Source of the DNA: a virus
Taxonomy: Duplodnaviria; Caudoviricetes
Virus record (IMG/VR): IMGVR_UViG_3300024346_000003
DNA: 64,000 bases
Direction: 5' to 3' (one strand)
Part shown: positions 1 through 53,640 of the stretch, piece by piece
How the letters are laid out: each line of letters opens with the position of its first letter
Numbering within the stretch: position 1 is the stretch's first letter
Translations under genes and position numbers: made by a program
The notes under the pieces: generated by a model
What the model was told of the DNA's origin: nothing
The model's database searches: none
What the model saw: the letters and a program-made list of their open reading frames with translations, nothing else

Positions 1-111
1 AAACATAATTTTCAGCAAAATTTATATACCAAATATAACTATAACTCATTGATTATTAATTTATTTTAGTGATGTGTTATGAGGGTTAGCCATTAGTTAT
101 AAGCAATGCTC

Positions 112-318
112 CTACCGCACATAACCTCTATCACACTTACACTCTACTTGTACTTGAATAGGATTTGGCACTCCGCAACATCCGTATTCTTTGTAGTTAC
201 CACAGCACTCCGCTTCGATTTCAATCGTGTAACCATTTCCACCACAAGCACTGCATATAACAGCACCTTGCAAAAATGCGGGGTCTTGTGGTTCATTGAT
301 GTTTTGTTCTTCGCTCAT
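112..318 (-). CDS. Cassette hypothetical protein with Cys-rich (Zn-finger-like) C-terminal module
   Basis: 68 aa; CSACGGNG...CKCDRG motifs resemble DnaJ-type CxxCxGxG; starts inside attC I. Confidence 0.6.
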   Translation of the reverse strand: MSEEQNINEPQDPAFLQGAVICSACGGNGYTIEIEAECCGNYKEYGCCGVPNPIQVQVECKCDRGYVR

Positions 319-388
319 AATTTTGTTGTTAAATTGAAAATTTGTTCTCCGTAATCCCGCACTTCTGCAAGCTGCCTTCCGTTATAAG
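255..388 (-). repeat. attC-like site I
   Basis: R'' CTTATAAC; arms GCAGCTTGCAGAAGTGCGGG / CCCGCATTTTTGCAAGGTGC; R' GTTATAT. Confidence 0.75.
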
Positions 389-391
389 AAA

Positions 392-733
392 TTATGCTTC
401 TCTTAGTGGTAGCCAAATTTCGCTATCTACAAAGCATTTTTCTTTACCACATAAAGCGTTGTACTTTTTAACATAATCTTCTGCCACTTCTCTTGTAGTA
501 CAAACAACGTCTTCGTCCTTATTGTCGTACCATCTTACAATCGCATAACTTCCAATAACATCACCTTGGCGCAATTTACGTAATTGTGCTACGTGATATA
601 ATTCTGCATATTCTTGCATTGCTTTAATTGCTTCTTCTCTTTCAATAACTCCATCTTTAGAAAAGTCAATATACTTGTTCAGTATCTCAAATCGTGAACC
701 AAGCAATACAATTTCTTTCTGTTCTTCTGTCAT
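392..733 (-). CDS. Cassette hypothetical protein
   Basis: 113 aa; starts inside attC H and crosses GTT as ...RKLRQGD-V-IGS. Confidence 0.6.
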   Translation of the reverse strand: MTEEQKEIVLLGSRFEILNKYIDFSKDGVIEREEAIKAMQEYAELYHVAQLRKLRQGDVIGSYAIVRWYDNKDEDVVCTTREVAEDYVKKYNALCGKEKCFVDSEIWLPLREA

Positions 734-783
734 AATTTTATTTTAATATTCGTAAACTTCGCCAAACTGTCAAACGTTATAAG
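553..783 (-). repeat. attC-like site H (long loop holding the N-terminal part of an ORF)
   Basis: R'' CTTATAAC; arms TTGGCGAAGTTTACG / CGTAAATTGCGCCAA; R' GTTATTG. Confidence 0.65.
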
Positions 784-1029
784 TCAGTTTGCTTTAAACA
801 AATGTAATCCACAATCACTACATTCATTTTCGTCTTTTTCCCATTCATAACGTGTACGAGGCTCACATTCGCAAACCGAACTTATAACAGTAGGTTGTTG
901 CAATTTACTTAATATTGCATCTGCGATAAGTTCAAAATTATCTTCGTGTATTGCTTTATCAGTGCAACTGCGGTCAACATAACCACTGTAATCATTTAAT
1001 AATTCTACAATTTCTTCCTTTGTTATCAT
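784..1029 (-). CDS. Cassette hypothetical protein, C-terminal Cys-rich module
   Basis: 81 aa; ...SKLQQPT-V-ISS; CECEP...CSDCG. Confidence 0.6.
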   Translation of the reverse strand: MITKEEIVELLNDYSGYVDRSCTDKAIHEDNFELIADAILSKLQQPTVISSVCECEPRTRYEWEKDENECSDCGLHLFKAN

Positions 1030-1078
1030 AATATTCCTTTTTAATCCGTAAACTTCACCAACCTACCTACCGTTAGCA
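882..1078 (-). repeat. attC-like site G (long loop)
   Basis: R'' TGCTAAC; arms GTAGGTTGGTGAAGTTTAC / GTAAATTGCAACAACCTAC; R' GTTATAA. Confidence 0.7.
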
Positions 1079-1085
1079 ACAATAG

Positions 1086-1361
1086 CTAATCAACCCTTCG
1101 TTCAATATCAATCCTGCCATTCATTGCGTTGGCGTTTGCAATGGTTTCTGCCTCACAATAGTCAGCACAATCAGCAATCCAATTACCATTTAAATACACT
1201 TGATAATATTCGGCAGAGCTACTGTTGCTAACATTGGCTATAAAATCATTGCCGTTTTTTAGGTCATTCCAAAATTCATCATCTAACATAATTCTGTTGT
1301 TTATTGAAAGTTTAAGCGTTTTAATCGGCAACGCTTCATAGCCCCGAAACGTTATGCTCAA
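1086..1361 (-). CDS. Cassette hypothetical protein (probable start about 1289)
   Basis: ...NGNDFIAN-V-SNS crosses R' of attC F. Confidence 0.5.
   Translation of the reverse strand: MSITFRGYEALPIKTLKLSINNRIMLDDEFWNDLKNGNDFIANVSNSSSAEYYQVYLNGNWIADCADYCEAETIANANAMNGRIDIERRVD
1226..1357 (-). repeat. attC-like site F
   Basis: R'' GCATAAC; arms GGCTATGAAGCGTTGCCG / CGGCAATGATTTTATAGCC; R' GTTAGCA. Confidence 0.75.
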
Positions 1362-1570
1362 GTGCTTTCAATTTCTATAACCTTTAACTCGTAGCGTTTC
1401 CCACCTAAAGAAAACTGAAACCGCTCGTCTGTCTTTAATAAGTTTTCAGCAACACTAGCAACAGCATCTTCAGTTACATCATGCTTTTCTCCAATCCACA
1501 TTCCTTTTTTAACTTTACCTACGTAAATTCTACTCGTTAAAGGTGAGCAACCTATTTTAAAATCTGACAT
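1358..1570 (-). CDS. Cassette hypothetical protein (self-contained)
   Basis: 70 aa ORF wholly between attC E and F. Confidence 0.6.
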   Translation of the reverse strand: MSDFKIGCSPLTSRIYVGKVKKGMWIGEKHDVTEDAVASVAENLLKTDERFQFSLGGKRYELKVIEIEST

Positions 1571-1612
1571 TTCTGTTAATTTATAAAGTTTATTTTTCTA
1601 TCTCGCACCTAA

Positions 1613-1666
1613 GCATAACAGCAAGTAAACCACATTAAAACGATGGTTTACTTGCAACCGTTAGCA
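1613..1666 (-). repeat. attC-like site E (compact, classical size)
   Basis: TGCTAAC-GGTTGCAAGTAAACCATCGTTTTAATGTGGTTTACTTGCT-GTTATGC; near-perfect hairpin. Confidence 0.85.
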
Positions 1667-1999
1667 GCAATGGCTAATATGCCTCACGTATTTGAAATTA
1701 TCTGACGTGCATTCAATACTACTTATACCGTCATTGTAGCTGAATTTAACGTGTATTACAAATTCAGTTGGTGCATATAAGCTATTCATTATAACTTCAA
1801 ATTGTTCTACCTTATAAATTTGTTTTTGTCCATAATGTAATACTTCTATCACATCTCCAACAGCTACAAATGACTTTATCAACTTGCCACTGCTGCTAAC
1901 ATCAGGTTTATTCAATGCGGGGTTCCTGCTCCCAAATAACCATTTTAGTAATTTCATATTTTTCGTTTTTAAATTAATTTTATCTGTAAAATCCCGCAC
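1661..1999 (-). CDS. Cassette hypothetical protein (probable start 1957)
   Basis: MKLLKWLFGSRNPALNKPD-V-SSS crosses R' of attC D. Confidence 0.55.
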   Translation of the reverse strand: MRDFTDKINLKTKNMKLLKWLFGSRNPALNKPDVSSSGKLIKSFVAVGDVIEVLHYGQKQIYKVEQFEVIMNSLYAPTEFVIHVKFSYNDGISSIECTSDNFKYVRHISHCC

Positions 2000-2023
2000 A
2001 AATAAACCTGCAAACGTTATAAG
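1894..2023 (-). repeat. attC-like site D
   Basis: R'' CTTATAAC; arms CAGGTTTATTTGTGCGGG / CCCGCATTGAATAAACCTG; R' GTTAGCA. Confidence 0.75.
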
Positions 2024-2226
2024 CCATTTAAGTAGTCACAATACATTTGTGCTTGTTTCTCGCTATTGTGTGGCATTATAATTACCTCTCTGCCTCTTGC
2101 ATCTAATATGGCTCGTTTCTGCTTTCTACCTAATCTGAAAGGTGGCACAAATACCTCCGAATCAAAACGGCTTATAACAGCACATTGGCAAAAAAGCCGT
2201 TTCATTTTCATAAGAATGTTTTTCAT
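2017..2226 (-). CDS. Cassette hypothetical protein
   Basis: MKNILMKMKRLFCQCA-V-ISR crosses R' of attC C. Confidence 0.55.
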   Translation of the reverse strand: MKNILMKMKRLFCQCAVISRFDSEVFVPPFRLGRKQKRAILDARGREVIIMPHNSEKQAQMYCDYLNGL

Positions 2227-2296
2227 AAGTATAAAATTTATCGTTTCTAATTAAGTTCTCGTTTCGGCTTCTTCGCCAATCTGCAAAACGTTAGCA
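2172..2296 (-). repeat. attC-like site C
   Basis: R'' TGCTAAC; arms GCAGATTGGCGAAGAAGCCG / CGGCTTTTTTGCCAATGTGC; R' GTTATAA. Confidence 0.75.
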
Positions 2297-2301
2297 GTAA
2301 T

Positions 2302-2607
2302 TCAAAGGTCAGTAACAAAATCAAATATAGACTTACTTATCCCACCTTCCTTATCTTTCTTGTCAACAGAACTACCGATAACAGTAGGTTGTCGCAATTT
2401 ACTTAGTTCTTCGTGATACGCTTCAGCATATTCCATCAAACTCAAAAGCAGATTTCCATCTACAACTTGCTTTTCGGCAAACTCTTTTAGGTCATTACTA
2501 TAATTCTTATCCCCTCTATCGCATAAATGATATTCAATCAATCTTTTGTGCAATTCAAAGTTTGCTTTTTCTGATTCTGCTTTTTTAATAAATTCTTCTT
2601 TTGTCAT
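2302..2607 (-). CDS. Cassette hypothetical protein
   Basis: ...SKLRQPT-V-IGS crosses R' of attC B. Confidence 0.6.
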   Translation of the reverse strand: MTKEEFIKKAESEKANFELHKRLIEYHLCDRGDKNYSNDLKEFAEKQVVDGNLLLSLMEYAEAYHEELSKLRQPTVIGSSVDKKDKEGGISKSIFDFVTDL

Positions 2608-2657
2608 AATCTTTTTATTTAATCCGTAAACTTCACCAACCTACCTAACGTTATGTA
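2375..2657 (-). repeat. attC-like site B (about 280 bp, loop holds most of an ORF)
   Basis: R'' TACATAAC; arms GTAGGTTGGTGAAGTTTAC / GTAAATTGCGACAACCTAC; R' GTTATCG. Confidence 0.65.
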
Positions 2658-2660
2658 CCA

Positions 2661-3014
2661 TTAAGGCGTAGTAGTTCTAATGAAGTTTGAAAAACCAGAT
2701 GCACTATAAAGTTTTTCATAGTCTTTTGGATTTTCTTCTTTCCATTTACGGTACATACTCATCCAAACTTTGTCATCAACTTTTTTAGTTTTACCATTCA
2801 ATACTTCATAAACAACATAATCCCAATTCCAATCTTTCATTATCGGAATAGTTGTTATTAATTTTTCCAATGTTTCAATTCTTAACGCCTTTTCAATATT
2901 ATGTGTTGCTTGTCCTTCGGCAACATAATATTTACCATCATCATTTAAAATAAAATATTTTTCCATCTTTGTAAATTTAAAGGTACATAACAAGGTGTAT
3001 ATGTTATACGCCAA
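2661..3014 (-). CDS. Cassette hypothetical protein (probable start 2966, MEKYF)
   Basis: ORF between attC A and B. Confidence 0.55.
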   Translation of the reverse strand: MAYNIYTLLCTFKFTKMEKYFILNDDGKYYVAEGQATHNIEKALRIETLEKLITTIPIMKDWNWDYVVYEVLNGKTKKVDDKVWMSMYRKWKEENPKDYEKLYSASGFSNFIRTTTP

Positions 3015-3080
3015 TGAAGTGTCGTACTTAATTTAAAATTTGTGGTTAGGCGTACAACACATATACCCAACCGTTATAAG
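2985..3080 (-). repeat. attC-like site A (first site of the array)
   Basis: R'' CTTATAAC; arms GGTATATGTGTTGTACGCC / GGCGTATAACATATACACC; R' GTTATGT. Confidence 0.8.
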
Positions 3081-3097
3081 TAATATTATTTTTGTTT

Positions 3098-3313
3098 TTA
3101 AATTAGTTTAATTTTTGGATTTTGAATTTCTGGAATACACAACTTCCAATCTTTACCATACATCGGTGATACAGTTCCAGCAAATGGAGTTTTCTTATAA
3201 AATATTAGATACTTTTTATCATCTTCCATTTTTGTTATTTCTTCTACTATATCAAAATCCAAATCGAAGAATCTGATTACTTCATCACATTTATGTCTAT
3301 TTATTCTTTTCAT
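3098..3313 (-). CDS. Hypothetical protein
   Basis: 71 aa ORF in a co-oriented run, directly upstream of attC A. Confidence 0.5.
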   Translation of the reverse strand: MKRINRHKCDEVIRFFDLDFDIVEEITKMEDDKKYLIFYKKTPFAGTVSPMYGKDWKLCIPEIQNPKIKLI

Positions 3314-3325
3314 AATTGTAATTTT

Positions 3326-3859
3326 TTAATCCCACCACCTATTAATTTTTTTTGCCATGATTCTAAATACTAAATCCTTAGCTTTTTCTTGTCTTAAGTC
3401 ACCCATAATCATAGCAACTAATTTTTTATCATTATGGTCAGTAGTAAATCTTTTTTGATTTTCTTTAATAAAGATAATTGCTCGTTTATGCCATGTTGGA
3501 AACTTTGTAAAATACGAATCAAAATCTTCACTGATAGTATTAATATTTATTTCACTATAACCTGGTTTATCTTCAATATCTGTAAATACCATTTCACTTT
3601 CATGATAATCAGTATATTCTGAATCGTAATAAGAGTCTTTAACTTTATTAATTAATTCAGCACAAATTAACATATCTTTAGCATCTTCTTGTGACCTAGT
3701 ATGTCTATCCTTCCTACCGATATAATTAGATTGTCTCCTTAATTTAAATTCAATAATCTGATATATAAACCAAGAGTCCCAATCCCTATCTTTCCAAATT
3801 ATAGGTAACCAAGCCCATAGATTACTGATTCCCGTTTTTAAGGTTCTAAATATTCGCAT
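3326..3859 (-). CDS. Hypothetical phage protein
   Basis: 177 aa ORF, tight packing, coding-like composition. Confidence 0.65.
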   Translation of the reverse strand: MRIFRTLKTGISNLWAWLPIIWKDRDWDSWFIYQIIEFKLRRQSNYIGRKDRHTRSQEDAKDMLICAELINKVKDSYYDSEYTDYHESEMVFTDIEDKPGYSEININTISEDFDSYFTKFPTWHKRAIIFIKENQKRFTTDHNDKKLVAMIMGDLRQEKAKDLVFRIMAKKINRWWD

Positions 3860-4101: not shown

Positions 4102-4338
4102 TTACTTAATTTTAAATTTAATATTATCGAATCCTGAGAATCCGTTTAACTTATCATGCGTTGTTAACATAAACATACCAATTAGTTGAGATATGGCAAC
4201 GCAAAGCATCTCATTGGTGTATTCGGTTGGTGGGTATATTAAAACCTCGTTAGATAGGTCCGTAGTGTATTCAAATGTAAAACCATTGAATTCATCTAGT
4301 ACTCTTTGTTTTCTTTCAACTTCGGTTAAATATTTCAT
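4102..4338 (-). CDS. Hypothetical protein
   Basis: 78 aa, TATATTTG box at 4343-4350 upstream. Confidence 0.55.
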   Translation of the reverse strand: MKYLTEVERKQRVLDEFNGFTFEYTTDLSNEVLIYPPTEYTNEMLCVAISQLIGMFMLTTHDKLNGFSGFDNIKFKIK

Positions 4339-4376
4339 ATTACAAATATACTAATAATTTATTAGTTAACCAAATT

Positions 4377-6078: not shown

Positions 6079-6966
6079 TTAATTTTGAAACAATTCCATT
6101 TTAATACCTCTTCGATTCATGTTTATTTTCATGATTTTTAAGGCTTTCTTTCTAACTTGCCTAACACCTTCTCGACTCATATCAACTTTATACCCAATTT
6201 CAACTAAACTTAATGGTTCATGGCCATTTAACCCGTAGGTTAAAGTTATGATTTCTTTTTGTCTACAATCCAGTGTTGTCATGATTGAATCTAATACTGA
6301 TTGTAAGTCATTATTATTAACTAAATGGTCAGCACTTAATGAATTATCATTTTCAAGTACATCAATCATTGAACCACTATCTGAATCACTAGTGAATGGT
6401 GTGTCTAATGATGTGATTGTCATACTATCTAAACTTAATAACATATTAATGTTATCAAAATTCAAATCAGAACCCTCAAGACCAACTAAATCTTGAGCAG
6501 CTGTTGGTCTTTGATTGATTTGTTCAAGACCAGACATCTCTCTTTTAAGTTTGTTTAATTCAGTAATTCTATTTATTGGAATTCTAACAGTTCTAGAATA
6601 CTTGTTCATATAATCTGTCACACTTTTTCTTATATACCAAACAGCATAAGATATGAATTTGAATCCACGACTTGGGTCGAATCTTTGAGCGGCTTCAATT
6701 AAACCATAGTTACCCTCAGTAACCAATTCTTCAAGTGGTGACTTACCATTAACATATTGTTTAGCTACACTAATTACAAACTTTAAATTTCTCTCAATCA
6801 ATTCATTTAAAGCATCAGTATCCCCATTGAAAGCTTTAATCGCACATTCATATTCTTCATCTGCGGTTTCAAATGATTTGATTGCTCTAACATCCATTAA
6901 GTATTGAGCAAATGCTTTTGATGATGTTCTGTCTGTAATTTTTTGGCTAATTTTTAATTGTCTCAT
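6079..6966 (-). CDS. Sigma-70 family RNA polymerase sigma factor (group 1/2-like)
   Basis: NLKFVISVAKQY, GLIEAAQRFDPSRGFKFISYAVWYIR (region 2), SREGVRQV (region 4). Confidence 0.92.
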   Translation of the reverse strand: MRQLKISQKITDRTSSKAFAQYLMDVRAIKSFETADEEYECAIKAFNGDTDALNELIERNLKFVISVAKQYVNGKSPLEELVTEGNYGLIEAAQRFDPSRGFKFISYAVWYIRKSVTDYMNKYSRTVRIPINRITELNKLKREMSGLEQINQRPTAAQDLVGLEGSDLNFDNINMLLSLDSMTITSLDTPFTSDSDSGSMIDVLENDNSLSADHLVNNNDLQSVLDSIMTTLDCRQKEIITLTYGLNGHEPLSLVEIGYKVDMSREGVRQVRKKALKIMKINMNRRGIKMELFQN

Positions 6967-6975
6967 ATATTTATT

Positions 6976-7452
6976 TTAAATTTTTACGTTAAGTTCTCTT
7001 TCTAAATCACGTTTTTTAATCGAATCTCGTTTATCGTGAAGTTTTTTACCTCTGCATAGTGATATTTCAATTTTTATTAAACCTTTGTCGGTAATAATAA
7101 CACTAATTGGTACTATTGTCAACCCTTTTTGCTCTACATTTTCATTTAATTTTATTATTTCTTTTTTGTTCAACAATAATTTCCTTAACCTGGTTGGTTC
7201 ATGATTCGTATGAATGCCACTTTGTTTATATTCAGATATATTCATACCCTTAATAAACAGTTCGTCATTTTTGATGTAACAATACCCCTCAGAGATTGAT
7301 ACCTTATGATTACGTATTGATTTTACTTCGCTACCAATTAGCTTGATACCAGCGGTTAGTTTATCAATAAACTCATATTCAAATGAGGCTTTCTTATTTC
7401 GTATTATAACTTCCATAATTAATTTTAACAAAGGTAAGGATAATAAAGACAT
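6976..7452 (-). CDS. smpB: SsrA-binding protein SmpB
   Basis: NKKASFEYE, AGIKLIGSEVKSIR, HEPTRLRKLLL, RGKKLHDKR. Confidence 0.95.
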   Translation of the reverse strand: MSLLSLPLLKLIMEVIIRNKKASFEYEFIDKLTAGIKLIGSEVKSIRNHKVSISEGYCYIKNDELFIKGMNISEYKQSGIHTNHEPTRLRKLLLNKKEIIKLNENVEQKGLTIVPISVIITDKGLIKIEISLCRGKKLHDKRDSIKKRDLERELNVKI

Positions 7453-8822: not shown

Positions 8823-9866
8823 ATGATGAGAATTATGACATTTGATAATATAAATAGGTTGAGTAGTATGTACTACTTAAATAAAGCAATTAATGAATCT
8901 AAATTGCTTGTCGAATCATACCCAAATGTTAATTCTTTATTATTAGAAGCTGATGATGATTCAGCACCTTATGAATGGGATTTTGTTAATAATAAATTCT
9001 ATGATAGAGTAAATAATATTGAAACTGATATTAAAAAATCAGCATCATATGTTAGAACAGCTGAACAAGGTATAGATTTCATTAAGACATTAGTTGCTAA
9101 AGTTGCTGAATTACCAGATAAATTAAAATCTCGTGTTGTTAAGGTAGCGATAGCATCAATGGCATTGACAATGGGTTATAACCAATTGGTTGATGTTGAT
9201 AGCAAAGTAGATGCTTTACCTAAAAACAATGTAGTAACGATGGTTGGTGACCTATTAGATAATGCTATAACTAAAAAAGAAGTACCACAAAAAGCTGAAA
9301 AACCTGTAGTAAAAGAAAAGTTTTCAAATAAAATAATTGAGCTATTAAAAACGCATGAAGGTATTGGTGGTAAACCAGTGCTTACCGCTTATAATATTGG
9401 TGATGGTGCATATACAATTGGATACGGTCACGCTGTATTTAAGGATATTTCTAGAGGTGATAATAGTAGTAGTTATGATTTCTTAGTATCATACGATGAG
9501 TATGAAAAAATGAAAAAAAGAGGTGAAAAGGTAACCATAACACCAGAACAAGCTGAACAATTATTAAAAGATGATGTTAAAATAGCTGCTGAAGGTTTAG
9601 ATAGGTTATTGAATGAATGGAAAGCTGATGGTATTAATCCTAAAATAACTCAACCTATGTATGATGCTATGGTTTCAATGATTTATAATATGGGTGTTAC
9701 CACATTTAGAAAAAGTGAATTTATCCAATTAGTAAAACGTGGTAAATTTAAACAAGCTGCTGAAGCAATTAAAAGCACCAGCAGCCAAATGTTTAGAAAA
9801 TATCCAGGATTAATAGTTAGAAGAGGTGATGAGTCTCAAACATTCACAGGTAATTACCCAACGTAA
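8823..9866 (+). CDS. GH24 (phage lambda/T4-like) lysozyme with long N-terminal extension
   Basis: LLKTHEG...AYTIGYGH...ITPEQAEQLLKDD...MYDAMVSMIYNMG...GLIVRRGDE. Confidence 0.85.
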   Translation: MMRIMTFDNINRLSSMYYLNKAINESKLLVESYPNVNSLLLEADDDSAPYEWDFVNNKFYDRVNNIETDIKKSASYVRTAEQGIDFIKTLVAKVAELPDKLKSRVVKVAIASMALTMGYNQLVDVDSKVDALPKNNVVTMVGDLLDNAITKKEVPQKAEKPVVKEKFSNKIIELLKTHEGIGGKPVLTAYNIGDGAYTIGYGHAVFKDISRGDNSSSYDFLVSYDEYEKMKKRGEKVTITPEQAEQLLKDDVKIAAEGLDRLLNEWKADGINPKITQPMYDAMVSMIYNMGVTTFRKSEFIQLVKRGKFKQAAEAIKSTSSQMFRKYPGLIVRRGDESQTFTGNYPT

Positions 9867-11392
9867 CCATCGTTACCCAATACACCACTAATTATTCTAT
9901 GGAATATTAAATCAGGATATCTTCTGATTGGACTAGTTGTATGCATATAAAACTTAACACCTAAACCATAATGCCCTATATTTTTAGTTTGATAATTAGC
10001 TTTGGTCATACATCTAACTACTAAATTATTAATTATATTTTCTTCTGGTGTATCTTTAACTTCCTTAAGTAACCCATTTAGTTTATCCTTAATCTTATTA
10101 TCATCAGATAAGTCTAATTTATAACCAATCAATTCTATAAATGTTTTTAGTGATTCTAATCTAGTTGGGTCTGGTTCATCATGTGTTCTATGCAATGTTA
10201 CAACACCTTTTTTTGTTACGTATTCACAAACTTGTCTGTTTGTTAAAACCATAAACTCCTCAATCAACCAATTCGATTCTTTTTGCTCAGTAAAATAAAC
10301 ACCAAGTGGATTTCCATTTAAATCTAAATCAAACTTGACTTCAGAACCTCTAAATTTTAATGAATTTTTATCACTTCTAATTTTTCTTATCTTACTTGCG
10401 TATCGATTCAAATCTAATATAGCTCTTTTTAAGTCTTTATTATAGATATCACCACCTTCAATTACTTTTTGAACTTCAGTATATGTTAATCGATAATTTG
10501 AATTGATTATACCACGACAAAACTTTTCTTTAATTACTTTAGCATTTTGGTCAAGTGTGAATATAAATGAATAAACTAATTTATCAGTATGTGGGTTAAG
10601 TGAACAAAGATTGTTACTTAATTTTTCTGGTAACATTGGTACAACCCTATCAACTAAATAAACCGATGTACCACGTTTATATGCTTCATCATCTATAGCT
10701 GTATTTGGTTTTACATAATAGGATACATCCGCAATATGAACAGCAACTTCAATATTACCATCAACCCATTGTACTGATAAGGCATCATCTAAATCTTTAG
10801 CTGTTTCACCATCAATAGTAAAAGTTAATATGTCACGCATATCTAATCTTTTAGCTATTTCTTTTTCTGAAATAACATCTGATATTAATTCAGATTCATT
10901 AATCACATTTTGTTTAAATTCATATGGTAGATTATATTCTTCTAATATACTATGAATTTCAACATCATTATTACCTGATTGACCTAATACTCTGATTACT
11001 TCACCATTAGGGTTTTTCTGATTATCACCCCAAGTCGTCATTTTCACAACAACCTTTTCACCATTAGATGCACCCATTGTTTTATTTAATGGGATGAATA
11101 TATCAATATTCATTCGTTTATTATCTGGTATTAGAAAAGCATGCTTTAATGATATTTGCATAGTACCAACGAACTCAGTCTTAAATCGCTCTATAATCTC
11201 AATTACCTTACCTTCAAATTGACCATTATCCGTTTTGGTCAATTCAACTTTAACTATATCTAAATGCAATGCTTTGTTTACACTACCTTTATTGATATGT
11301 ATACCCTTTTTTATATCTTGGTTTGTAACATACCCTGAACCGAACCCCGTAAGACCAATTTCACCAGTTACAATATCTCCTTTTTTAAACAT
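9854..11392 (-). CDS. rnr: RNase R N-terminal fragment (cold-shock/OB domains + RNB catalytic domain)
   Basis: TIDGETAKDLDDALS, VHIADVSYYV, RGTSVYLVDRVVPMLP, HTTSPIRRYPDLIFHR. Confidence 0.92.
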   Translation of the reverse strand: MFKKGDIVTGEIGLTGFGSGYVTNQDIKKGIHINKGSVNKALHLDIVKVELTKTDNGQFEGKVIEIIERFKTEFVGTMQISLKHAFLIPDNKRMNIDIFIPLNKTMGASNGEKVVVKMTTWGDNQKNPNGEVIRVLGQSGNNDVEIHSILEEYNLPYEFKQNVINESELISDVISEKEIAKRLDMRDILTFTIDGETAKDLDDALSVQWVDGNIEVAVHIADVSYYVKPNTAIDDEAYKRGTSVYLVDRVVPMLPEKLSNNLCSLNPHTDKLVYSFIFTLDQNAKVIKEKFCRGIINSNYRLTYTEVQKVIEGGDIYNKDLKRAILDLNRYASKIRKIRSDKNSLKFRGSEVKFDLDLNGNPLGVYFTEQKESNWLIEEFMVLTNRQVCEYVTKKGVVTLHRTHDEPDPTRLESLKTFIELIGYKLDLSDDNKIKDKLNGLLKEVKDTPEENIINNLVVRCMTKANYQTKNIGHYGLGVKFYMHTTSPIRRYPDLIFHRIISGVLGNDGYVG

Positions 11393-13035: not shown

Positions 13036-13668
13036 TTACTTTGTTGCATCCGTTATATGATGAACAATTACTTTTAATTTTTGTTTACTGGCCCAATCCT
13101 GAAATACTGGTAAATGGTCATCTCTATCTTCCCATATTTCAATTTCTTCTAGGATTGGATTGTTATTAACTAATTTATCCAATACTTCTATTTTAAAATC
13201 AGCAGTATCTAAATTACCAGTTTTATAGATATAATCATTAAACTTTAATCCTTTACTGTTTAATATATCAGTAACCAATTTACCAACACCAGCATGTCTA
13301 CCAGTTAATAATAATACCATAGTATCTGGTCTGCTAGATTGTTCTTTATAGGCTGATAATGTTTTTGGTATTGGGTTATTATCAAAGATATTTTTACTCA
13401 ATCCAAGTTCTTTATTAATATCACTACCTAATTTAGGATTATTCTCAAAATAGATTCTACTATCCAAACTTTCAGGTCTACCCCACCAACCTTTAAATGG
13501 CCATTCAAACCCAAATTCTTTTTGCCACAAAGGTTTACCACTTTCTGGTGTATCAGTATCAATTAACGTACCATCAAAATCAAATATAGCTATTCGTTTG
13601 ATTGTTTCATCAATAACACCTTCCCTTAATATCATTCTAATTTTATCTTTCATTTTACAAATATACAA
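13036..13668 (-). CDS. HAD-superfamily phosphatase (Swiss-Army-knife RNA-repair-like HAD)
   Basis: IFDFDGTL, LLTGR, WEDRDDH; probable start 13653 (MKDKIRMILREG). Confidence 0.7.
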   Translation of the reverse strand: MYICKMKDKIRMILREGVIDETIKRIAIFDFDGTLIDTDTPESGKPLWQKEFGFEWPFKGWWGRPESLDSRIYFENNPKLGSDINKELGLSKNIFDNNPIPKTLSAYKEQSSRPDTMVLLLTGRHAGVGKLVTDILNSKGLKFNDYIYKTGNLDTADFKIEVLDKLVNNNPILEEIEIWEDRDDHLPVFQDWASKQKLKVIVHHITDATK

Positions 13669-15681: not shown

Positions 15682-16269
15682 TTAATTAAAACTATTGTTA
15701 TAATGCTGAAGTAGTTTAGAAAGCTTTAATTTAGCTTTAAGTAAGTTAGTTTTTGATGTACTAACATTAATACCGAGCTCATCAGCAATTTCATTGTGAC
15801 TATAATTTTCAATATAGTATAATTGGAATACTTTTTTGTATTTTGGACTTAGATTTGATATCGCAACATTTATATCATTAGACATAACTTCACCAAAATT
15901 ATCAATTACATCTGTATTTATAAAATATGAATTGAGGTTATTCAATTTATCTTCAGAAATATCAGTGGTATCTCGCCTTTTTCGTATAGAATCTATAACA
16001 CTATTTTTACTAACCATCTTAACCCATGCGGAAAATTGTGCTGGTGATTTACCTTTAAATGTGTCTACCTTATCCATCACCTTTAAGAATATATCTTGCG
16101 TTAAGTCTTCAGCTTCATGTAAATTCTTAATGTATTTTTTACAAACATTTAAAACAGTATAATAGTATTTTATATATAATGCCGATTGGTAAGATTTATC
16201 TTTATTTTTACAACCATCTATGATTTCAAAAATATCAGTTTTGTTATTAACAAGTAATTCTCGAACCAT
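15682..16269 (-). CDS. ECF-type sigma-70 factor
   Basis: AEDLTQDIFLKV, FSAWVKMVSKNSVIDSIRK, YSHNEIADELGINVSTSKTNL. Confidence 0.9.
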   Translation of the reverse strand: MVRELLVNNKTDIFEIIDGCKNKDKSYQSALYIKYYYTVLNVCKKYIKNLHEAEDLTQDIFLKVMDKVDTFKGKSPAQFSAWVKMVSKNSVIDSIRKRRDTTDISEDKLNNLNSYFINTDVIDNFGEVMSNDINVAISNLSPKYKKVFQLYYIENYSHNEIADELGINVSTSKTNLLKAKLKLSKLLQHYNNSFN

Positions 16270-20125: not shown

Positions 20126-20770
20126 TTAAAATTTCCTACCTATTTTCCATCCATTTTTAAGATAAAAATCAAGGTCTTCCTTTTTAATTTTCTTTACTTC
20201 CTTAGCATTAGTAATCCAGCAAGTTCCAAATTGTGAGTTAGCTTTGCCAGTTCTTTGTTTAGCTTTTTCACTCATTTTACACTTACTCTCTTTGGAATGG
20301 GTTCTATCTTTAAAACTTAAATCACCAGTTACCTTTCTTTTACCATTTTGGTATTGCGTTTTAAGTGAATTGCTTATGTTTTCACTAACTCTATTAACCC
20401 ATTCTGGGTCATTTTCTCTAAGAGTCTTCATCAACTCATTGGTTGCTTTTGAACCCATTTGTTGAATTTCATTCGTGAAACCACCATACCCACCAACTTT
20501 AAGGTTCATACAGTCTTCTTTAGCAATCTCATTAAGATTAACAATTTCGGCTTCTCTAGCTTTAAGTTCGGGTCTACTATCAACAAACTCAAGTATTTCG
20601 ACTTTATGGTTTTCTTTACCATACTTGTTAATCGAGTACCTAAGTCTCTTTCCAGAACCCATGTAACCGTCATTCAAGTTATCTGTTGAATGCATTCCTA
20701 AATAATACTTACCACTAAGTAAGTTAGTTGTTTTGTAAATGAAGTGGTACTTCTTTTCCTTTCTTGACAT
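20126..20770 (-). CDS. GIY-YIG-type (Seg-like) homing endonuclease with NUMOD3-like motif
   Basis: FIYKTTNLLSGKYYLGMH, GYMGSG, HSKESKCKMSEKAK; sits between two tRNA-Lys genes. Confidence 0.8.
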   Translation of the reverse strand: MSRKEKKYHFIYKTTNLLSGKYYLGMHSTDNLNDGYMGSGKRLRYSINKYGKENHKVEILEFVDSRPELKAREAEIVNLNEIAKEDCMNLKVGGYGGFTNEIQQMGSKATNELMKTLRENDPEWVNRVSENISNSLKTQYQNGKRKVTGDLSFKDRTHSKESKCKMSEKAKQRTGKANSQFGTCWITNAKEVKKIKKEDLDFYLKNGWKIGRKF

Positions 20771-24715: not shown

Positions 24716-25534
24716 TTATGAATTTATTAAAAGTTGTTTTATTTCATTAACTATATCTAAATGTTGTGGACCAAATTTCTCCCAAGCTAATCCCATTTCC
24801 TTTAAATCATAGTGTTTAACTACTGTGCTATAATCTTTAACACCATCTTTGTGTCCTATTATGTAGATACTATCAGCTAATTCAACCGCCAAATTTATAT
24901 CGTGTGTTGAAAATATGATGGTGTTCAACTCATGACTTTCTTGTATTAATTTGAATGCTGATTTAACATTCTCAATATTACCAACATCTAAACCACTGAA
25001 CGGTTCATCAAATACCATAAAATGACCTGATGATAACAGTTGTTCAATAATCGCAGTTCTTTGTCTTTGACCACCAGATAATTCACATGGGTATTTATCC
25101 TTATGTTCAAATAATCCCCAATCAGTTAGATACTTATCAATCAGTGTTGATTTCTCATCTTTAGTAATACCTTTCTTTCTTAAGGCATAATTACAGATTT
25201 GTGTGATTGTTTTGTGTCTGAACAATGTATACTTTTGGTCAACAAACCCAACATCACCTTCACCAACCAATTTAGCATCATCTTTATTGACACTACTTAT
25301 ATCAGTAATCAATACTCTACCAGTTGTTGGTTTAATCAAACCAGTCAAAGCTTTGAATAATGTTGATTTACCTCTACCAGAACGACCAACTACTGCGATT
25401 GTCTGACCAACTACAGAACCTTCCGAAATAACATCGTGTTCAGTAATATTAATATCTTTAATAATTGTTTTACCATCATATGCAACACTAATGTTGTCAA
25501 GACATAAAATTGTTTCTTTAATTTCGTATTTCAT
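24716..25534 (-). CDS. ABC transporter ATP-binding protein (NitT/TauT-like)
   Basis: GRSGRGKST, LSGGQRQR, FDEPFSGLD, STHD. Confidence 0.92.
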   Translation of the reverse strand: MKYEIKETILCLDNISVAYDGKTIIKDINITEHDVISEGSVVGQTIAVVGRSGRGKSTLFKALTGLIKPTTGRVLITDISSVNKDDAKLVGEGDVGFVDQKYTLFRHKTITQICNYALRKKGITKDEKSTLIDKYLTDWGLFEHKDKYPCELSGGQRQRTAIIEQLLSSGHFMVFDEPFSGLDVGNIENVKSAFKLIQESHELNTIIFSTHDINLAVELADSIYIIGHKDGVKDYSTVVKHYDLKEMGLAWEKFGPQHLDIVNEIKQLLINS

Positions 25535-25536
25535 AA

Positions 25537-26304
25537 TTAGATTTTTGAATATCTGAATAAACGTTTTCTGATGAATGTTAATGTGAAGTCCATAAATAGA
25601 CCAACTAACAAGATGATTAACTGCAATGCAATGATTCGACCATGATTCATGAACTTATCAGAATTTTTAATAAGAAATCCTAAACCACCAGCAGCCGCTA
25701 ATATTGATTCAACCGTTACTAACATCATCCACACAATTGCTAGATTTTGTCTAACTACTTCAATAACGTAGTCCACACGACCTTTAATTACAACTTCCCA
25801 TAGAATCTCCCATCTATTGCAACCAAGTGCTCTAGCGTGGTCAAAATCCTCTTGTGGGATATCTTTTAGCATTGCTAATAATGATGTTGTTAAATAAGTT
25901 GTCATAAATGTTACCAACACCCAAACTTGAATTGCTCTACCATCAGTTAATAATATTGATATGTAAAATGAAATTCCAGTTAAAGGTAGGTATCTAAATT
26001 TACTTAAAATATTAGATATCGGTGATATTACTGGTAGTGTTGATAGATACGCAAATACCAAGGATATTGATATTGCAATTAATACAGCTTTACCACATAG
26101 TGCTAATGAACTAAATATGTGAACAATTAATCCCTCTTTATAAAGTTCAGATACACCACTAAATACTTGACCTGGTGTTGGGAACATATGTGTAGTCCCA
26201 AGACTAGATAAAACCCAAAGTGTTATAATGGTTAACAACCAACCTAATCCTATAAAAAGTTTAGTTTTTTGGGTTATATTCTCGAAAGGTTTAAAAATAT
26301 TCAT
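25537..26304 (-). CDS. ABC transporter permease
   Basis: TM helices; DHARALGCNRWEIL (EAA loop); GGLGFLI. Confidence 0.88.
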   Translation of the reverse strand: MNIFKPFENITQKTKLFIGLGWLLTIITLWVLSSLGTTHMFPTPGQVFSGVSELYKEGLIVHIFSSLALCGKAVLIAISISLVFAYLSTLPVISPISNILSKFRYLPLTGISFYISILLTDGRAIQVWVLVTFMTTYLTTSLLAMLKDIPQEDFDHARALGCNRWEILWEVVIKGRVDYVIEVVRQNLAIVWMMLVTVESILAAAGGLGFLIKNSDKFMNHGRIIALQLIILLVGLFMDFTLTFIRKRLFRYSKI

Positions 26305-26883: not shown

Positions 26884-28710
26884 TTACTGTAGTAATGTGA
26901 TTTCTACTCGTCTATTCTTGGCTTTACCTTGCGCCGTTGAGTTATCAGCAACTGGTCTAGAATCACCTTTACCATCTACCTCTTGGATACGTGATTTGGG
27001 AATTCCACGATTTTCAAGGTATTCAACTACCGCATTTGCTCTACCTTTAGATAAGGTCATGTTGCTTGATGGGTTACCAACGTTATCAGTGTGACCCACA
27101 ATTCTTAATTTAGAATCTTCCGCTTGCATTAACAAGTTATAGATTTTCTCTAAATCTTTATTTGATACTTGTTGAATTGTAGTACTTCCAGTTGCAAAGT
27201 TAATATTCCAGTTACCACTAGCCATAACGTGTGTTTTGTTTTTTGAGTAATCAGATTTTTCGACCATACCTACATCAATATCATCAATGTTTTTCAAGTA
27301 ACGTAAGTTTACAGCTTCATCGTAAGGTACAATTCTATCAACTGATTGCATAAATCCGTAAGGATTCAATTCACTTAAGTACGTTGATACTTGGTTATAT
27401 ACTGACTCATAACGATTGATACCATCACTGATACCGTAGTATTGCATAGCATCACCATAGTTAAGTACTCTTGACCCACCCATGTTGTATACAAGTCCGT
27501 TTTTATTACCTTTCGTACCTTTGAACATTGTGTACCAGTATTCAGGTGTTTCCATATCAAATGTCTTTGCAACACATTCAGATGCTTTTACTCTCCATGA
27601 ATCATATTGTTTCATTTGGTTAGATGCGGTCAATGCTGATTTAAGGATATTACTTACGATTTTAGGGTGTTTTGCCGCCCATTCTTTAACACCGATTAAA
27701 GTAGTTGCCATTTGATTTCTAAATTCATGTGTTGATACAACATCAGTAAATCCAGTCAATGCATCAAATACAACCTTATCACCAGGTGTCCATGTAGCAC
27801 AACCATCAATTTTCTTATTGATTGTCTTACCAGTCAATTTACCGTCTTTAACTTCTTTCAATTCAACAGTGAAACCATTCTTTTGAGATTTGATTAATTC
27901 TTTTGCAGAGTTAATATAGTCATCATCTTCAGATGGGTAAAAGTTTACAGCTTCAGGGTCATATGTTGTTACATCAGGATTAACTTTCAATCCATTAGCA
28001 AAAACGTAGTTTAATGAAGTTACCCAGTCACCATCACCAATAACAGTTGAGATAAGAGCACCTTTCATTGATTGTGGGTCTGTTTTCCATTCTTTAGGTC
28101 CGATTAATTTATCTTCACCATCTGACATACCGAAACAACCTTGCACTTCTACGTGATATTTACCTTCACCAAATTTATCATCTAATGCTGATTGCATAGT
28201 AGAGATGTAATATGGTGCACCATCACCCATTATAATAACACCATAAGCTGATTTATTAGATTTAGGATATTCAACACCACGGTCCATTTCCTCAATAAAC
28301 TTCAACTGCATATTCTTTAATTCGGTAACCCAGTCTTGTCTGATGATTTCCAAATTAACACCGTTTGCCTCCATAAGGGAACCTTCAGTTGTTTTTGGAC
28401 CACCATTTGCTACGATGATACCAGATTGGCCATTCCAAGCGTATCCAGCAATTCGTACTACTGATTTATCAGACATTTCACTTGATAACTCATCAGATGG
28501 TAAATCAATCAAAGTACTTCTCATACTGTTATCGATATTATCATCACTCAATTCCATTCCGTCTAGTGTTTTAGATTCATCTACACGAAGTCCAGGTGCT
28601 AAGAAATACACACCAGTTAAAACGATGGCTAAACCAGCCGCTAAAATAAAAATTTCAAATCCTGTAGTCAAACCTTGATTTGGATTTTTTCTGTTAAAAA
28701 TTTTTCCCAT
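26884..28710 (-). CDS. Periplasmic substrate-binding-like domain fused to C-terminal OmpA peptidoglycan-binding domain
   Basis: N-terminal TM; INFATGS...VGHTDNVG...LSKGRANAV...KNRRVEI. Confidence 0.8.
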   Translation of the reverse strand: MGKIFNRKNPNQGLTTGFEIFILAAGLAIVLTGVYFLAPGLRVDESKTLDGMELSDDNIDNSMRSTLIDLPSDELSSEMSDKSVVRIAGYAWNGQSGIIVANGGPKTTEGSLMEANGVNLEIIRQDWVTELKNMQLKFIEEMDRGVEYPKSNKSAYGVIIMGDGAPYYISTMQSALDDKFGEGKYHVEVQGCFGMSDGEDKLIGPKEWKTDPQSMKGALISTVIGDGDWVTSLNYVFANGLKVNPDVTTYDPEAVNFYPSEDDDYINSAKELIKSQKNGFTVELKEVKDGKLTGKTINKKIDGCATWTPGDKVVFDALTGFTDVVSTHEFRNQMATTLIGVKEWAAKHPKIVSNILKSALTASNQMKQYDSWRVKASECVAKTFDMETPEYWYTMFKGTKGNKNGLVYNMGGSRVLNYGDAMQYYGISDGINRYESVYNQVSTYLSELNPYGFMQSVDRIVPYDEAVNLRYLKNIDDIDVGMVEKSDYSKNKTHVMASGNWNINFATGSTTIQQVSNKDLEKIYNLLMQAEDSKLRIVGHTDNVGNPSSNMTLSKGRANAVVEYLENRGIPKSRIQEVDGKGDSRPVADNSTAQGKAKNRRVEITLLQ

Positions 28711-34366: not shown

Positions 34367-34696
34367 TTGATTATAATTTACCCAATGGATAAGGTATATT
34401 TACTAGCAAATGAAGAATGGACACAATTTAAAATTGGTGTCACAAAAAACGTAACTAATAAACGAAAAAGTGATTTACAAACTGGTAATGGTTCTGAAAT
34501 AATTATAGTTAATACTTTTGAAACTAGATTTTCAAACAAAGTTGAGAAGTGGTTGCATAGAAAATACAATTCAAAGCGATTAGTTGGTGAATGGTTTGCG
34601 CTTAATGACAATGATATTACTAATTTCATATCTGATTGTCAAAAAGCGCATGATACATTCCAATGTTTAATCGATAGTGGGAATCCTTTTATATAA
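34367..34696 (+). CDS. GIY-YIG domain protein (T5orf172/Mug113-like)
   Basis: VYLL...FKIGVTK...LQTGN...EKWLH...GEWF. Confidence 0.75.
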   Translation: MIIIYPMDKVYLLANEEWTQFKIGVTKNVTNKRKSDLQTGNGSEIIIVNTFETRFSNKVEKWLHRKYNSKRLVGEWFALNDNDITNFISDCQKAHDTFQCLIDSGNPFI

Positions 34697-35899
34697 GGTA
34701 GTACTATCTTCTAAATTATAGAATTCCCGTCTAATATGAATTAACAACCCATCTACTAATCTTGAATCAACCTTTTTAGGTAAATCTGAATTATCAAATA
34801 TACTATCCATTTCTTCAATAGCCTGGTCAGCCATTGCTATTAAATTTTCCAAATCAACTTCACCACGTCTAATTGCAAGTAACTCTTGAGCATCTTCTCT
34901 ACGAACATTAATACCTTCACCTCTACCAATCTCTTGGGCCATTCTAATAAGTCGAATACAATGCATCATATTCTTACCATCGATGCGTTGACCATGTTCT
35001 TGCGTTTCAACATAGCGAGTCTCATTACGGTTTTCCAACCATTCTTGATATTCTCTATAGTCTTTGCAGTGCATAGTGTAACCATCTTTGTTATAGATGA
35101 TATTACAAATAGGTGTTTCACCTTTTGGTATGCTTGAAAGACGTAGTTGGTTGGATTCAGCAGCGTTTGCACCTTCATCAGTTTTAACAAGACCTTTGTA
35201 ACCTAACGCATAAGGTTCGGAATAATACTTTTTACCTTCTTCTCTATCTTCTTCAGATAAGTTTTCAGAAAAACAAGCTTGAGCAACTTCATCATGATAA
35301 ACTGCATATACATCTCTAGCATTTGGGACATTTACAACGCCGCAAAATTTGTTCTCATACTTAATATATTCTTGACTATATTTAGGTTTATCCATGCACC
35401 ATATTTTCCATGGTATAGACTTTTCACCCTCAATAACGTATACGAAATCCAATACATCTTTACGAGTTACTTTGTCTTTCTCCCAGTTTTGTTTCTTATC
35501 AAGACCTTTCGCTTTCTTAATTTGTTGTCTAGCATAACCACCGAATGAATCCTTACAAATCTGTGTAATAAAGTCATCTTTATGTGCTAGTATATCATCA
35601 AACAATGGATGTTTAGATACAATGCAATCTTCAGGGCTATTAAGTAATTCTAAAACTGTTGGGTTATTGCTACCCATTAGTTCTAGGAAACGTCTAATTT
35701 CCCACCCAACGTAATCTTTATTTACGTTTATTTGTTCAACATACCCAGTACCTAAGATATAATCTTGTGGTAGTATATATACAAATTTTTTGTCTATATC
35801 AGATGTTGGTGTCTGCGTTCCATACGCTTGTGACCCAACTATTGTTTCAAATAGGATTAACCCATTTTCAACTAAAAATTCATGCGTTATTTGTTTCAT
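34667..35899 (-). CDS. Pol-beta superfamily nucleotidyltransferase (Nuc-transf/YcgL-like)
   Basis: VGSQAYGTQTPTSDIDKK, NPTVLELL, DGKNMMHCIRL. Confidence 0.75.
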   Translation of the reverse strand: MKQITHEFLVENGLILFETIVGSQAYGTQTPTSDIDKKFVYILPQDYILGTGYVEQINVNKDYVGWEIRRFLELMGSNNPTVLELLNSPEDCIVSKHPLFDDILAHKDDFITQICKDSFGGYARQQIKKAKGLDKKQNWEKDKVTRKDVLDFVYVIEGEKSIPWKIWCMDKPKYSQEYIKYENKFCGVVNVPNARDVYAVYHDEVAQACFSENLSEEDREEGKKYYSEPYALGYKGLVKTDEGANAAESNQLRLSSIPKGETPICNIIYNKDGYTMHCKDYREYQEWLENRNETRYVETQEHGQRIDGKNMMHCIRLIRMAQEIGRGEGINVRREDAQELLAIRRGEVDLENLIAMADQAIEEMDSIFDNSDLPKKVDSRLVDGLLIHIRREFYNLEDSTTLYKRIPTID

Positions 35900-39202: not shown

Positions 39203-39303
39203 TTAAAAAATGTGTTTAAAACTTATTTATAACAAAAAATGCGGACATCTATGTTTAATTATAAATAGTCCGCATTAATTCAAATGTTAATAAATTTTAA
39301 TAT

Positions 39304-53568: not shown

Positions 53569-53640
53569 TAGGCATGTCGAGATTCGAACTCGAAATACAA
53601 CAGTATCAGTGTTGCGTGATAACCATTTCACTACACGCCT
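53569..53640 (-). tRNA. tRNA-Ile(GAT)
   Basis: CAACA-CTGATAC-TGTTG. Confidence 0.88.

Follow-up and report, generated by a model that had tools for sequence, protein, structure and literature searches.

Hairpin modules of a phage gene array appear to exchange whole genes and to re-pair protein halves at an in-frame valine codon

In the giant-phage window analysed here (the whole stretch of DNA, 64 000 nucleotides long), nine imperfect, strand-specific hairpins, which read TAAC...GTTA on the plus strand, lie between positions 96 and 3076. Nine small co-directional ORFs run through the same region on the minus strand, and most of them begin inside a hairpin and leave it through its foot. This arrangement raises the question of what such an array moves, whole genes or parts of genes, and at which foot of the hairpin DNA is joined. 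A first-pass annotation of the sequence had answered that each cassette carries the C-terminal part of one protein and the N-terminal part of the next, such that reordering would build new fusion proteins. One part of this answer is borne out by comparison with related arrays, and the other is not.

The array (96-3076, minus strand) consists of nine hairpin modules (X) that alternate with bodies (Y), chained via common 4-nt cores. Read on the sense strand, an X module has the form TAAC-G-NNNN-arm...arm-T-GTTA, and its loop is either empty or occupied by a 5' leader, an ATG and the N-terminal module of a protein. Y modules have the form GTTA-N6-(G/C)-N4...N4-T-N6-TAAC and contain a small gene in full or else a C-terminal module that has a stop codon but no start. 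As the annotation had proposed for seven of the nine sites, a minus-strand ATG lies in the hairpin loop: X1 (258-384) holds the ATG at 318 and 19 codons of ORF 112-318, with the Val codon of the core at 259-261; X2 (556-779) the ATG at 733 and 58 codons of ORF 392-733 (Val 557-559); X3 (885-1075) the ATG at 1029 and 47 codons of ORF 784-1029 (Val 886-888); X4 (1229-1354) the ATG at 1289 and 19 codons of ORF 1086-1289 (Val 1230-1232); X6 (1897-2019) the ATG at 1957 and 19 codons of ORF 1661-1957 (Val 1898-1900); X7 (2175-2293) the ATG at 2226 and 16 codons of ORF 2017-2226 (Val 2176-2178); and X8 (2379-2653) the ATG at 2607 and 75 codons of ORF 2302-2607 (Val 2380-2382). The distance from core to core in these coding hairpins is 111-267 nt. 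X5 (1616-1663, 40-nt interior) and X9 (2988-3076, 81-nt interior, at the upstream end of the array) are short and have no coding loop, and each is followed by a self-contained ORF.

The bodies, all on the minus strand, complete these genes. C-terminal modules are carried by Y0 (96-261, ORF 112-318, with an outer core at 96), Y1 (381-559, GTTA...TAAC, ORF 392-733, a DUF7277-like beta-beta-alpha-beta domain), Y2 (776-888, ORF 784-1029, Cys-rich), Y3 (1072-1232, ORF 1086-1289, with ends GTTAGCAACAATAGCT / AGCTACTGTTGCTAAC that are 94% complementary), Y5 (1660-1900, ORF 1661-1957) and Y6 (2016-2178, ORF 2017-2226), whose ends are each 93% complementary, and Y7 (2290-2382, ORF 2302-2607). Y4 (1351-1619) holds the self-contained ORF 1358-1570 (DUF7446) between the complementary ends GTTATGCTCAAGTGC / GCACCTAAGCATAAC, and Y8 (2650-2991) the self-contained ORF 2661-2966, again between complementary ends.

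The hairpins were located with a geometry-aware detector on which TAAC and GTTA were imposed, so that the presence of these motifs is no test. It replaced an energy-only scan of every AAC...GTT pair (duplexfold), which was too noisy. All nine sites were found. The remaining 60 kb of the strand that carries them gave only two borderline matches, and the opposite strand gave two; the same-strand extras (4165-4368 and 39230-39289) have no complementary body ends, lie outside the system and were rejected as false positives, and a lower threshold was again noisy. The flanking bases and the +7 positions were not imposed by the detector, yet across 69 distinct hairpins of this and other arrays they are nearly invariant, also between unrelated arm families: TAAC-A in 65/69 and T at +7 in 66/69 on one side, C-GTTA in 62/66 and A at +7 in 65/66 on the other. 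The C before GTTA on the plus strand corresponds to TAAC-G on the sense strand, which is the core of recent events. The body ends, which played no part in detection, form a stem at positions 1-10 and 12-15, each of which shows several types of Watson-Crick pair, and position 11 is almost never Watson-Crick (G.T in 27, C.T in 10 and Watson-Crick in 4 of 44). In addition, the sense (mRNA) strand folds better in 64/69 hairpins, with G.U-compatible pairs, a surplus for which G>C skew could account in part. An Rfam scan of positions 1-3400 matched no family, in a collection that contains no attC model; promoter-like and terminator-like matches are no more frequent in this window's hairpins than in shuffled versions of them, and the Bacteroidota -7 promoter motif TAnnTTTG is absent between the 5' arm and the ATG of its leaders. 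The window alone cannot tell which core is the crossover, because the pairing from which the annotation had placed it inside the genes is symmetric and the bodies, too, have complementary ends.

The reading frame sets the gene-internal core apart. In all seven coding hairpins this core is read GTT, an in-frame Val as originally claimed, within the junction peptides LQGA-V-ICS, RQGD-V-IGS, QQPT-V-ISS, FIAN-V-SNS, NKPD-V-SSS, CQCA-V-ISR and RQPT-V-IGS. The probability of such agreement by chance is somewhat higher than 1/729: with one alternative frame shut by certain cores (GTTAG gives TAG; GTTATAA gives TAA), the estimate becomes about 1/432, or 1/144 given the first, for sites that are partly related by descent. 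Nor is the frame random in other arrays, since among the 69 distinct hairpins 36 of 41 core-crossing ORFs do so in frame 0 and five only in another frame. With the core fixed as GTT (Val) in one phase, any front half is in frame with any back half, as in phase-compatible exons. The spacing of leader and ATG from the 5' arm is constant, and purifying selection acts on the N-module (dN/dS 0.12-0.17 at dS 0.7-0.95). Moreover, in a structure model of moderate-to-low confidence (mean pLDDT 66.8), the C-domain folds separately and begins at the Val, behind a linker that is itself predicted with low confidence. An annotated CDS of the cultured Cellulophaga phage phi17:1, gp8, spans such a core; the hairpins of this phage, which has relatives on Cellulophaga baltica, lie at 1415-2749 of KC821617. 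Gene callers can misplace starts in arrays of this kind.

The same design is present in 28 other viral or metagenome contigs as well as in phi17:1, and the modules have a single orientation across the 28 contigs. Hairpin X3 recurs at 98% identity in contig L047 and at 91% in G002, where in both cases the bodies on either side differ from those here, and X4 is 80% identical to a hairpin of phi17:1. The nearest of the relatives compared, G001, does not reach the array. The conserved arm pattern and the N-module found no match in 185 579 bacterial and archaeal genomes, and we found no published description of such a system. Assemblies of these phages break within the arrays.

Do front and back halves change partners? 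When each protein is split at the Val and its halves are searched separately, as the first-pass annotation had suggested, the same C-module is found behind many N-modules and the same N-module before many C-modules. Body Y1, the back half of ORF 392-733, stands elsewhere at 85-95% identity behind seven unrelated N-modules whose arms are also unrelated, and the N-module of the same ORF heads at least eight different C-modules. In L047, the 98% identical copy of X3 is joined to an unrelated body with only TAAC in common, and a body called Y_e is joined, at 99% identity, to two different hairpins. In G002, a start-donating hairpin joined to a self-contained body gives a 34-codon ORF whose stop codon precedes the ATG of the body itself by 3 nt. 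Partners switch precisely at the Val, and homology between the arms is not required. As judged from these sequence comparisons, shuffling at the in-frame Val is real, and the claim that reordering makes new fusion proteins finds its counterpart in modules re-paired at this codon.

Such re-pairing might be the work of homologous recombination between conserved arms or leaders, driven by phage annealing proteins without a site-specific step. The PeSL of T4-type phages set a precedent (PMC2839356, PMC4122927), small carrier phages encode ERF-family annealing proteins, and families of arms, 24-50 nt long, recur with conserved sequence in different phages. One exchange, that of Y_e with either of the hairpins X_f and X_h, lies inside an identical 23-nt arm, and within the KLHQPT arm family an in-gene exchange is indistinguishable from homologous recombination in the 24-nt arm. 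However, many junctions share only the core plus 1-2 bases between otherwise unrelated arms or bodies, the near invariance of the cores and +7 positions holds across unrelated arm families, and the hairpins of this window lack the promoter or terminator consensus of a PeSL-like unit. As a general explanation, homologous recombination is thus unlikely.

The other foot of the hairpin is a junction as well. One body stands behind five unrelated hairpin arms, and one hairpin stands before three unrelated bodies, with only [A/C]C-GTTA in common. Logan contigs of this array break at 96, 380/381, 385, 2293 and 2654. At the outer core of Y0 (96), a contig of another metagenome run diverges into a different, hairpin-arm-like sequence, and in two runs a variant of X7 has a loop of 22 nt where the coding loop here measures 79 nt. 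The Logan joints serve only as supporting evidence, since their short sides measure 20-32 nt, and neither excised circles nor reads in the course of rearrangement were seen directly. Taken together, whole-gene swaps at the intergenic core and half swaps at the Val make both cores junctions. Use of both feet, together with the very short common sequence and the absence of a recombinase gene, could also be explained by an enzyme-free template switch, in which replication stalls at the foot of a hairpin and resumes elsewhere via the common 5-nt core. Such a switch would give no reason, however, for the strand specificity, for a spacer fixed at 5 versus 1 nt, for the A-T pair that is invariant at position 7 of the hairpin stem or for the conserved lack of Watson-Crick pairing at position 11 of the body stem, and we regard it as improbable.

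If both cores are used, which of them bounds the mobile unit? The near-identical contigs L053, L059, L065, L046 and G002 are told apart by whole-unit indels; where near-identical contigs differ by whole genes, the joint is the intergenic GTTA, and the sequence in common there amounts to only about 5 nt. Since sequence is inserted, deleted or replaced between intergenic cores in such contigs, it is whole genes that move. Among homologous hairpin pairs from different contigs, only the intergenic partner had changed in six and only the in-gene partner in none, a ratio in which, all evidence being comparative, exchange rates are confounded with selection against non-functional chimeras. In the population of this array, a Logan variant joins 379 to 775 and skips ORF 392-733 (short side 27 nt, possibly with letters in between). 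Hence the composition of the cassette proposed at first, the back half of one gene plus the front half of the next, does not agree with contigs that differ by whole genes, and the usual mobile unit appears, from these alignments, to be the whole gene. A strict form of that proposal would make the gene-internal GTT the sole crossover, with a cassette of C-part, hairpin and next N-part. It is right that the in-gene core is a real junction, and in that orientation the longer arm would be on the R''-L'' side. Nevertheless, the recent events and the six-to-none statistic stand against it, the variant joining 379 to 775 could have arisen if ORF 392-733 was lost in one piece, and the G that follows AAC at the intergenic core is as in the R' box of a classical attC, which makes the strict form very improbable. 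Finally, a role of the hairpins mainly in the mRNA, as structures that govern its stability, processing or translation, with incidental mosaicism, would suit the better-folding mRNA-sense strand (64/69, G.U-compatible) and the fixed spacing of leader and ATG from the 5' arm, but is scarcely credible given that sequence mosaics break exactly at the cores, that Rfam gives no match and that RNA function alone does not predict whole-unit indels.

We therefore favour an integron-like, structure-specific cassette system of phages with Flavobacteriia-type hosts, and put the probability of this reading at about 0.6. Comparison of the arrays shows DNA joined at both cores, with about 5 nt or less of common sequence: exchange at the intergenic core (TAAC-G) moves whole genes and dominates recent events, and exchange at the gene-internal core (T-GTTA) re-pairs N-modules with C-modules. 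TAAC-G resembles the AAC-G of the bottom-strand R' box of attC, and T-GTTA resembles R''. The sense strand may fold as single-stranded DNA and be cut by a recombinase acting in trans, either the host's or a phage protein that has escaped recognition. Weak strand selection could account for the use of both cores; when the extrahelical bases of a classical attC site are removed, the crossover shifts to R'' (PMC2727003). The biological role might be fast diversification of small two-domain accessory proteins. The search for a recombinase in the viral records (three genomes complete or near complete) and the window gave no match: PF00589 is absent from the roughly 40 ORFs of the window and from nine related viral records, and PF00239 and PF01797 are absent from the same ORFs and from five viral records. 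A weak integrase-like match in G005 proved to be an HTH protein.

How, then, does this array compare with known systems? Integron-type recombination is thought to move complete, self-contained genes. Clusters of attC sites without an integrase (CALINs), defined by at least two attC-type sites within a few kb and no integrase nearby, have been reported in phages (Qi et al. 2023, PMC9892861), and the present array, with nine sites in 3 kb and no integrase among the roughly 40 window ORFs, may be one if standard attC detectors accept its sites. As in integrons and CALINs, small co-oriented and apparently promoter-less genes lie between imperfect AAC...GTT hairpins with a variable loop, core crossovers need almost no common sequence, whole cassettes are gained and lost, AAC is followed by G at the main crossover, and each cassette has ends complementary to the inverse core. 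In contrast, integrons have IntI and attI, neither of which was found in the window or the searched records, and their ORF is on the top strand and precedes attC, whereas here, with the main crossover taken as R', the ORFs are on the folding, bottom-like strand with their 5' ends inside the hairpin. The attC site has a 7-bp R box (RYYYAAC/GTTRRRY), an unpaired central spacer on both arms and extrahelical bases on the R''-L'' arm (PMC2727003). Only YTAAC and GTTA of this consensus fit here. The R-box-like stem extends over 15 bp, and its position 11 is a conserved mismatch; the spacers of the two arms differ in length (5 nt versus 1 nt), and the extra bases are on the arm adjoining the main crossover. 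Unlike attC, moreover, loops of up to about 220 nt encode a translation start and an N-terminal domain, and the second, R''-like core is also a junction, phase-locked to the reading frame.

The PeSL of T4-type phages are promoter-and-terminator units between genes that recombine via their own homology, for which mini-circles have been proposed (PMC2839356, PMC4122927). They share with this array repeated stem-loops that bound modular shuffling among small accessory genes of large phages, but the hairpins here lack a promoter or terminator consensus, have about 5 nt in common at joins and enclose coding sequence. The donation of a translation start has its own parallel. In integrons, attI leader ORFs (ORF-11, aac(6')-Ib variants) supply a start codon from the neighbouring site to a start-less cassette; such fusions are sporadic, at attI or in fused cassettes, whereas here the start-donating site is systematic and phase-standardised at most sites. 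Shufflons (Rci/sfx) and the Gin/Cin tail-fibre segments likewise place natural recombination sites in frame within a gene and swap C-terminal segments. They work by inversion at double-stranded sites, with one fixed N-terminus and a dedicated adjacent recombinase, whereas here many N- and C-modules reassort by insertion, deletion or replacement at hairpins, and no serine or tyrosine recombinase was found in the window or the searched viral records.

Synthetic attC sites recombined by engineered IntI1 have been placed in coding sequences, in frame at linkers, for module shuffling (Nivina et al. 2020, PMC7439510). They share with the present hairpins a structure-specific site in frame inside a protein-coding sequence; the sites here are natural, and their coding part is limited to the loop, one arm and one core. 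In the present array a recombination hairpin also carries a translation start and a folded N-terminal domain, with its second core in fixed phase, and in the public protein record front and back halves form a combinatorial matrix whose joints lie exactly at the Val codon. It is conceivable, though we advance it tentatively and at less than even odds, that Bacteroidota phages possess a dedicated combinatorial protein-building system, in which phase-locked hairpin sites (GTT = Val, phase 0) let gene-moving machinery also re-pair independently folding N- and C-domains into new two-domain proteins at population time-scales, crossing unrelated phage families (jumbo and about 30-kb) and biomes. If a recombinase does act at both cores, this would be a natural domain-shuffling device in viruses, and it would have a bearing on the diversification of small accessory proteins in phages, which may be counter-defence proteins. 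Such a system, if true, would be a natural counterpart of exon shuffling and of the in-frame attC constructs that synthetic biologists have engineered.

Nine imperfect hairpins lie between positions 96 and 3076 of the window, each running from TAAC to GTTA on the plus strand. At seven of the nine, the first-pass annotation had placed the start codon in the loop and read the crossover GTT as an in-frame Val, and a check of the coordinates bears this out: each of these loops contains the ATG of a minus-strand ORF that runs on through the 3' arm as coding sequence and has the gene-internal core as a GTT (Val) codon, and the junction peptides are the same as those reported there. The seven coding loops hold N-terminal parts of 16-75 codons. 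Self-contained ORFs, of which one is DUF7446, follow the remaining two hairpins, both of which are short. A detector based on geometry (TAAC, 0-4 nt, stem, loop, stem, 2-9 nt, GTTA) recovers all nine sites, with just four borderline matches elsewhere on both strands of the window; the two on the array's strand are false positives. Measured over window 1-2000, the array has a G+C content of 0.35, versus 0.28-0.30 in its surroundings.

The N-terminal module (N-module) of ORF 784-1029, carried in the loop of the third hairpin (885-1075), has a dN/dS of 0.12-0.17 at a dS of 0.7-0.95. For ORF 392-733, the predicted structure consists of two helices, a low-confidence linker (residues 53-58) and a better-predicted beta-beta-alpha-beta domain from Val59 (mean pLDDT 66.8). 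Since the Pfam DUF7277 profile also begins at Val59, the in-gene junction of this ORF is a predicted domain boundary.

The bodies between hairpins are likewise bounded by complementary ends abutting the cores. Every core thus has, on either side, sequence that pairs with a neighbour, so that the window alone permits either the gene-internal or the intergenic core as the crossover. Across 44 bodies from many contigs, pairing of the ends covers positions 1-10 and 12-15, each position using several pair types; at position 11 a Watson-Crick pair hardly ever occurs (G.T 27, C.T 10). Because body ends were not used in detection, their pairing is independent evidence of selected structure. In logos of 69 distinct hairpins, TAAC-A, T at +7, C-GTTA and A at +7 are near-invariant, and the spacer is 1 nt at the gene-internal side versus about 5 nt at the intergenic side. 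The sense strand gives the stabler arms in 64 of the 69, which may be partly due to G>C skew.

Comparison among contigs shows exchange at both cores, where the ends of BLAST segments concentrate. In near-identical contigs (97-100%), whole units between intergenic cores are inserted, deleted or replaced. A single body stands behind five hairpin arms that are unrelated to one another, and a single hairpin ahead of three unrelated bodies, in each case with only [A/C]C-GTTA in common. Among homologous hairpin pairs, six changed the intergenic partner while keeping the in-gene partner, and none did the reverse. Logan contigs of the array diverge at 96, 380/381, 385, 2293 and 2654, and at one point in an in-gene core (2174); one contig joins 379 to 775, with a shorter side of only 27 nt, a joint that would remove ORF 392-733 whole. 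The downstream end of the array coincides with the start of the window, and perhaps of the contig, which fits assemblies breaking in such variable arrays.

Exchange at the in-gene core is also seen. A body 89% identical to that of ORF 392-733 is preceded in another contig by an entirely different N-module, with the switch at Val. The expectation that the same half would occur with different partners was confirmed by a protein search: the C-terminal module is found behind seven N-modules and the N-module ahead of at least eight C-terminal modules, always breaking at Val. The partner hairpin arms are unrelated at the DNA level, and thus arm homology is not required for the in-gene switch. Moreover, the third hairpin is 98% identical in a further contig, yet joined to an unrelated body. 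Elsewhere, a hairpin that donates a start codon is joined to a self-contained body; the resulting ORF has 34 codons, stops 3 nt short of the ATG of that body, and resembles the outcome of modules being joined blindly.

Two arm patterns matched eight viral contigs and 21 from metagenomes; no bacterial genome was retrieved. The carriers include complete or near-complete, mutually related phages of about 27-35 kb with no protein in common with the window; hence the element crosses phage families. Among cultured phages, only Cellulophaga phage phi17:1 (KC821617) is related to any part of the array; it has four hairpins of this type, and its annotated gp8 begins within one of them and reads through the core in frame. 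The phi17:1 cassette region also contains a roughly 160-bp direct repeat (1300-1460 and 2270-2434) that includes a short TAAC...GTTA hairpin. The frame at GTT is non-random in other arrays too, as the first-pass annotation required: over all arrays, 36 core-crossing ORFs are in frame 0 and five only in another frame. In one contig (L070, 1501-1866), the gene caller's P0003 starts upstream of the hairpin's 5' core, and its true start is likely the ATG that follows the leader (MKATDDF...); in such hairpins, starts can be misplaced by automatic annotation.

The 64-kb window has about 30% G+C and nearly all its genes on the minus strand. Its products (sigma factors, RNase R/II, SmpB, CCA-adding enzyme, RNA-repair proteins, PAS histidine kinase and lysis enzymes), together with one array protein that is recorded on a 303,820-bp contig, fit a jumbo phage. 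The RNA-metabolism set is unusually rich: SmpB, the tmRNA partner (6976-7452, minus), an RNB exoribonuclease of RNase R/II type (9854-11392, minus) and a CCA-adding/poly(A) polymerase family enzyme (59006-60184, minus). RNA-repair type genes (13036-13668, 34667-35899, 42863-43501 and 44776-46164, minus) encode a HAD domain of Swiss-army-knife repair proteins, an RlaP nucleotidyltransferase, an RNA-ligase-like protein and an ATP-dependent ligase. Also present are two sigma-70 family factors, one ECF-like (6079-6966 and 15682-16269, minus), an ABC transporter ATPase gene adjoining one for an inner-membrane permease component (24716-26304, minus), an OmpA-domain protein (26884-28710), and GIY-YIG (SegE-like) and HTH-HNH homing-type endonuclease genes close to tRNA regions (20126-20770 and 53639-54208, minus).

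As to mechanism, simple homologous recombination would draw on the ERF annealing proteins that the small carrier phages encode, but the junctions share just about 5 nt, which argues against it. The main crossover carries an AAC-G signature, which also marks the R' box in the attC strand that recombines. Strand choice at classical attC sites becomes less strict when the extrahelical bases are lost, and the crossover shifts to R'' (PMC2727003); such relaxation may explain the use of both cores here. The short junctions, the signature and this precedent favour integron-like, hairpin-specific recombination supplied in trans. Searches of the window and nine viral records for a tyrosine recombinase came up empty, as did searches of five viral records for a serine recombinase or Y1 transposase. 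Under integron-like recombination, exchanges would commonly involve whole genes, and in-frame swaps of gene halves would be rarer or more often counter-selected.

A literature search found no published description of natural start-donating, phase-locked hairpin sites. Among known systems, CALINs have already been published in phages (PMC9892861), as has PeSL shuffling in T4-type phages (PMC2839356, PMC4122927), and in-frame attC sites have been made by engineering (PMC7439510).
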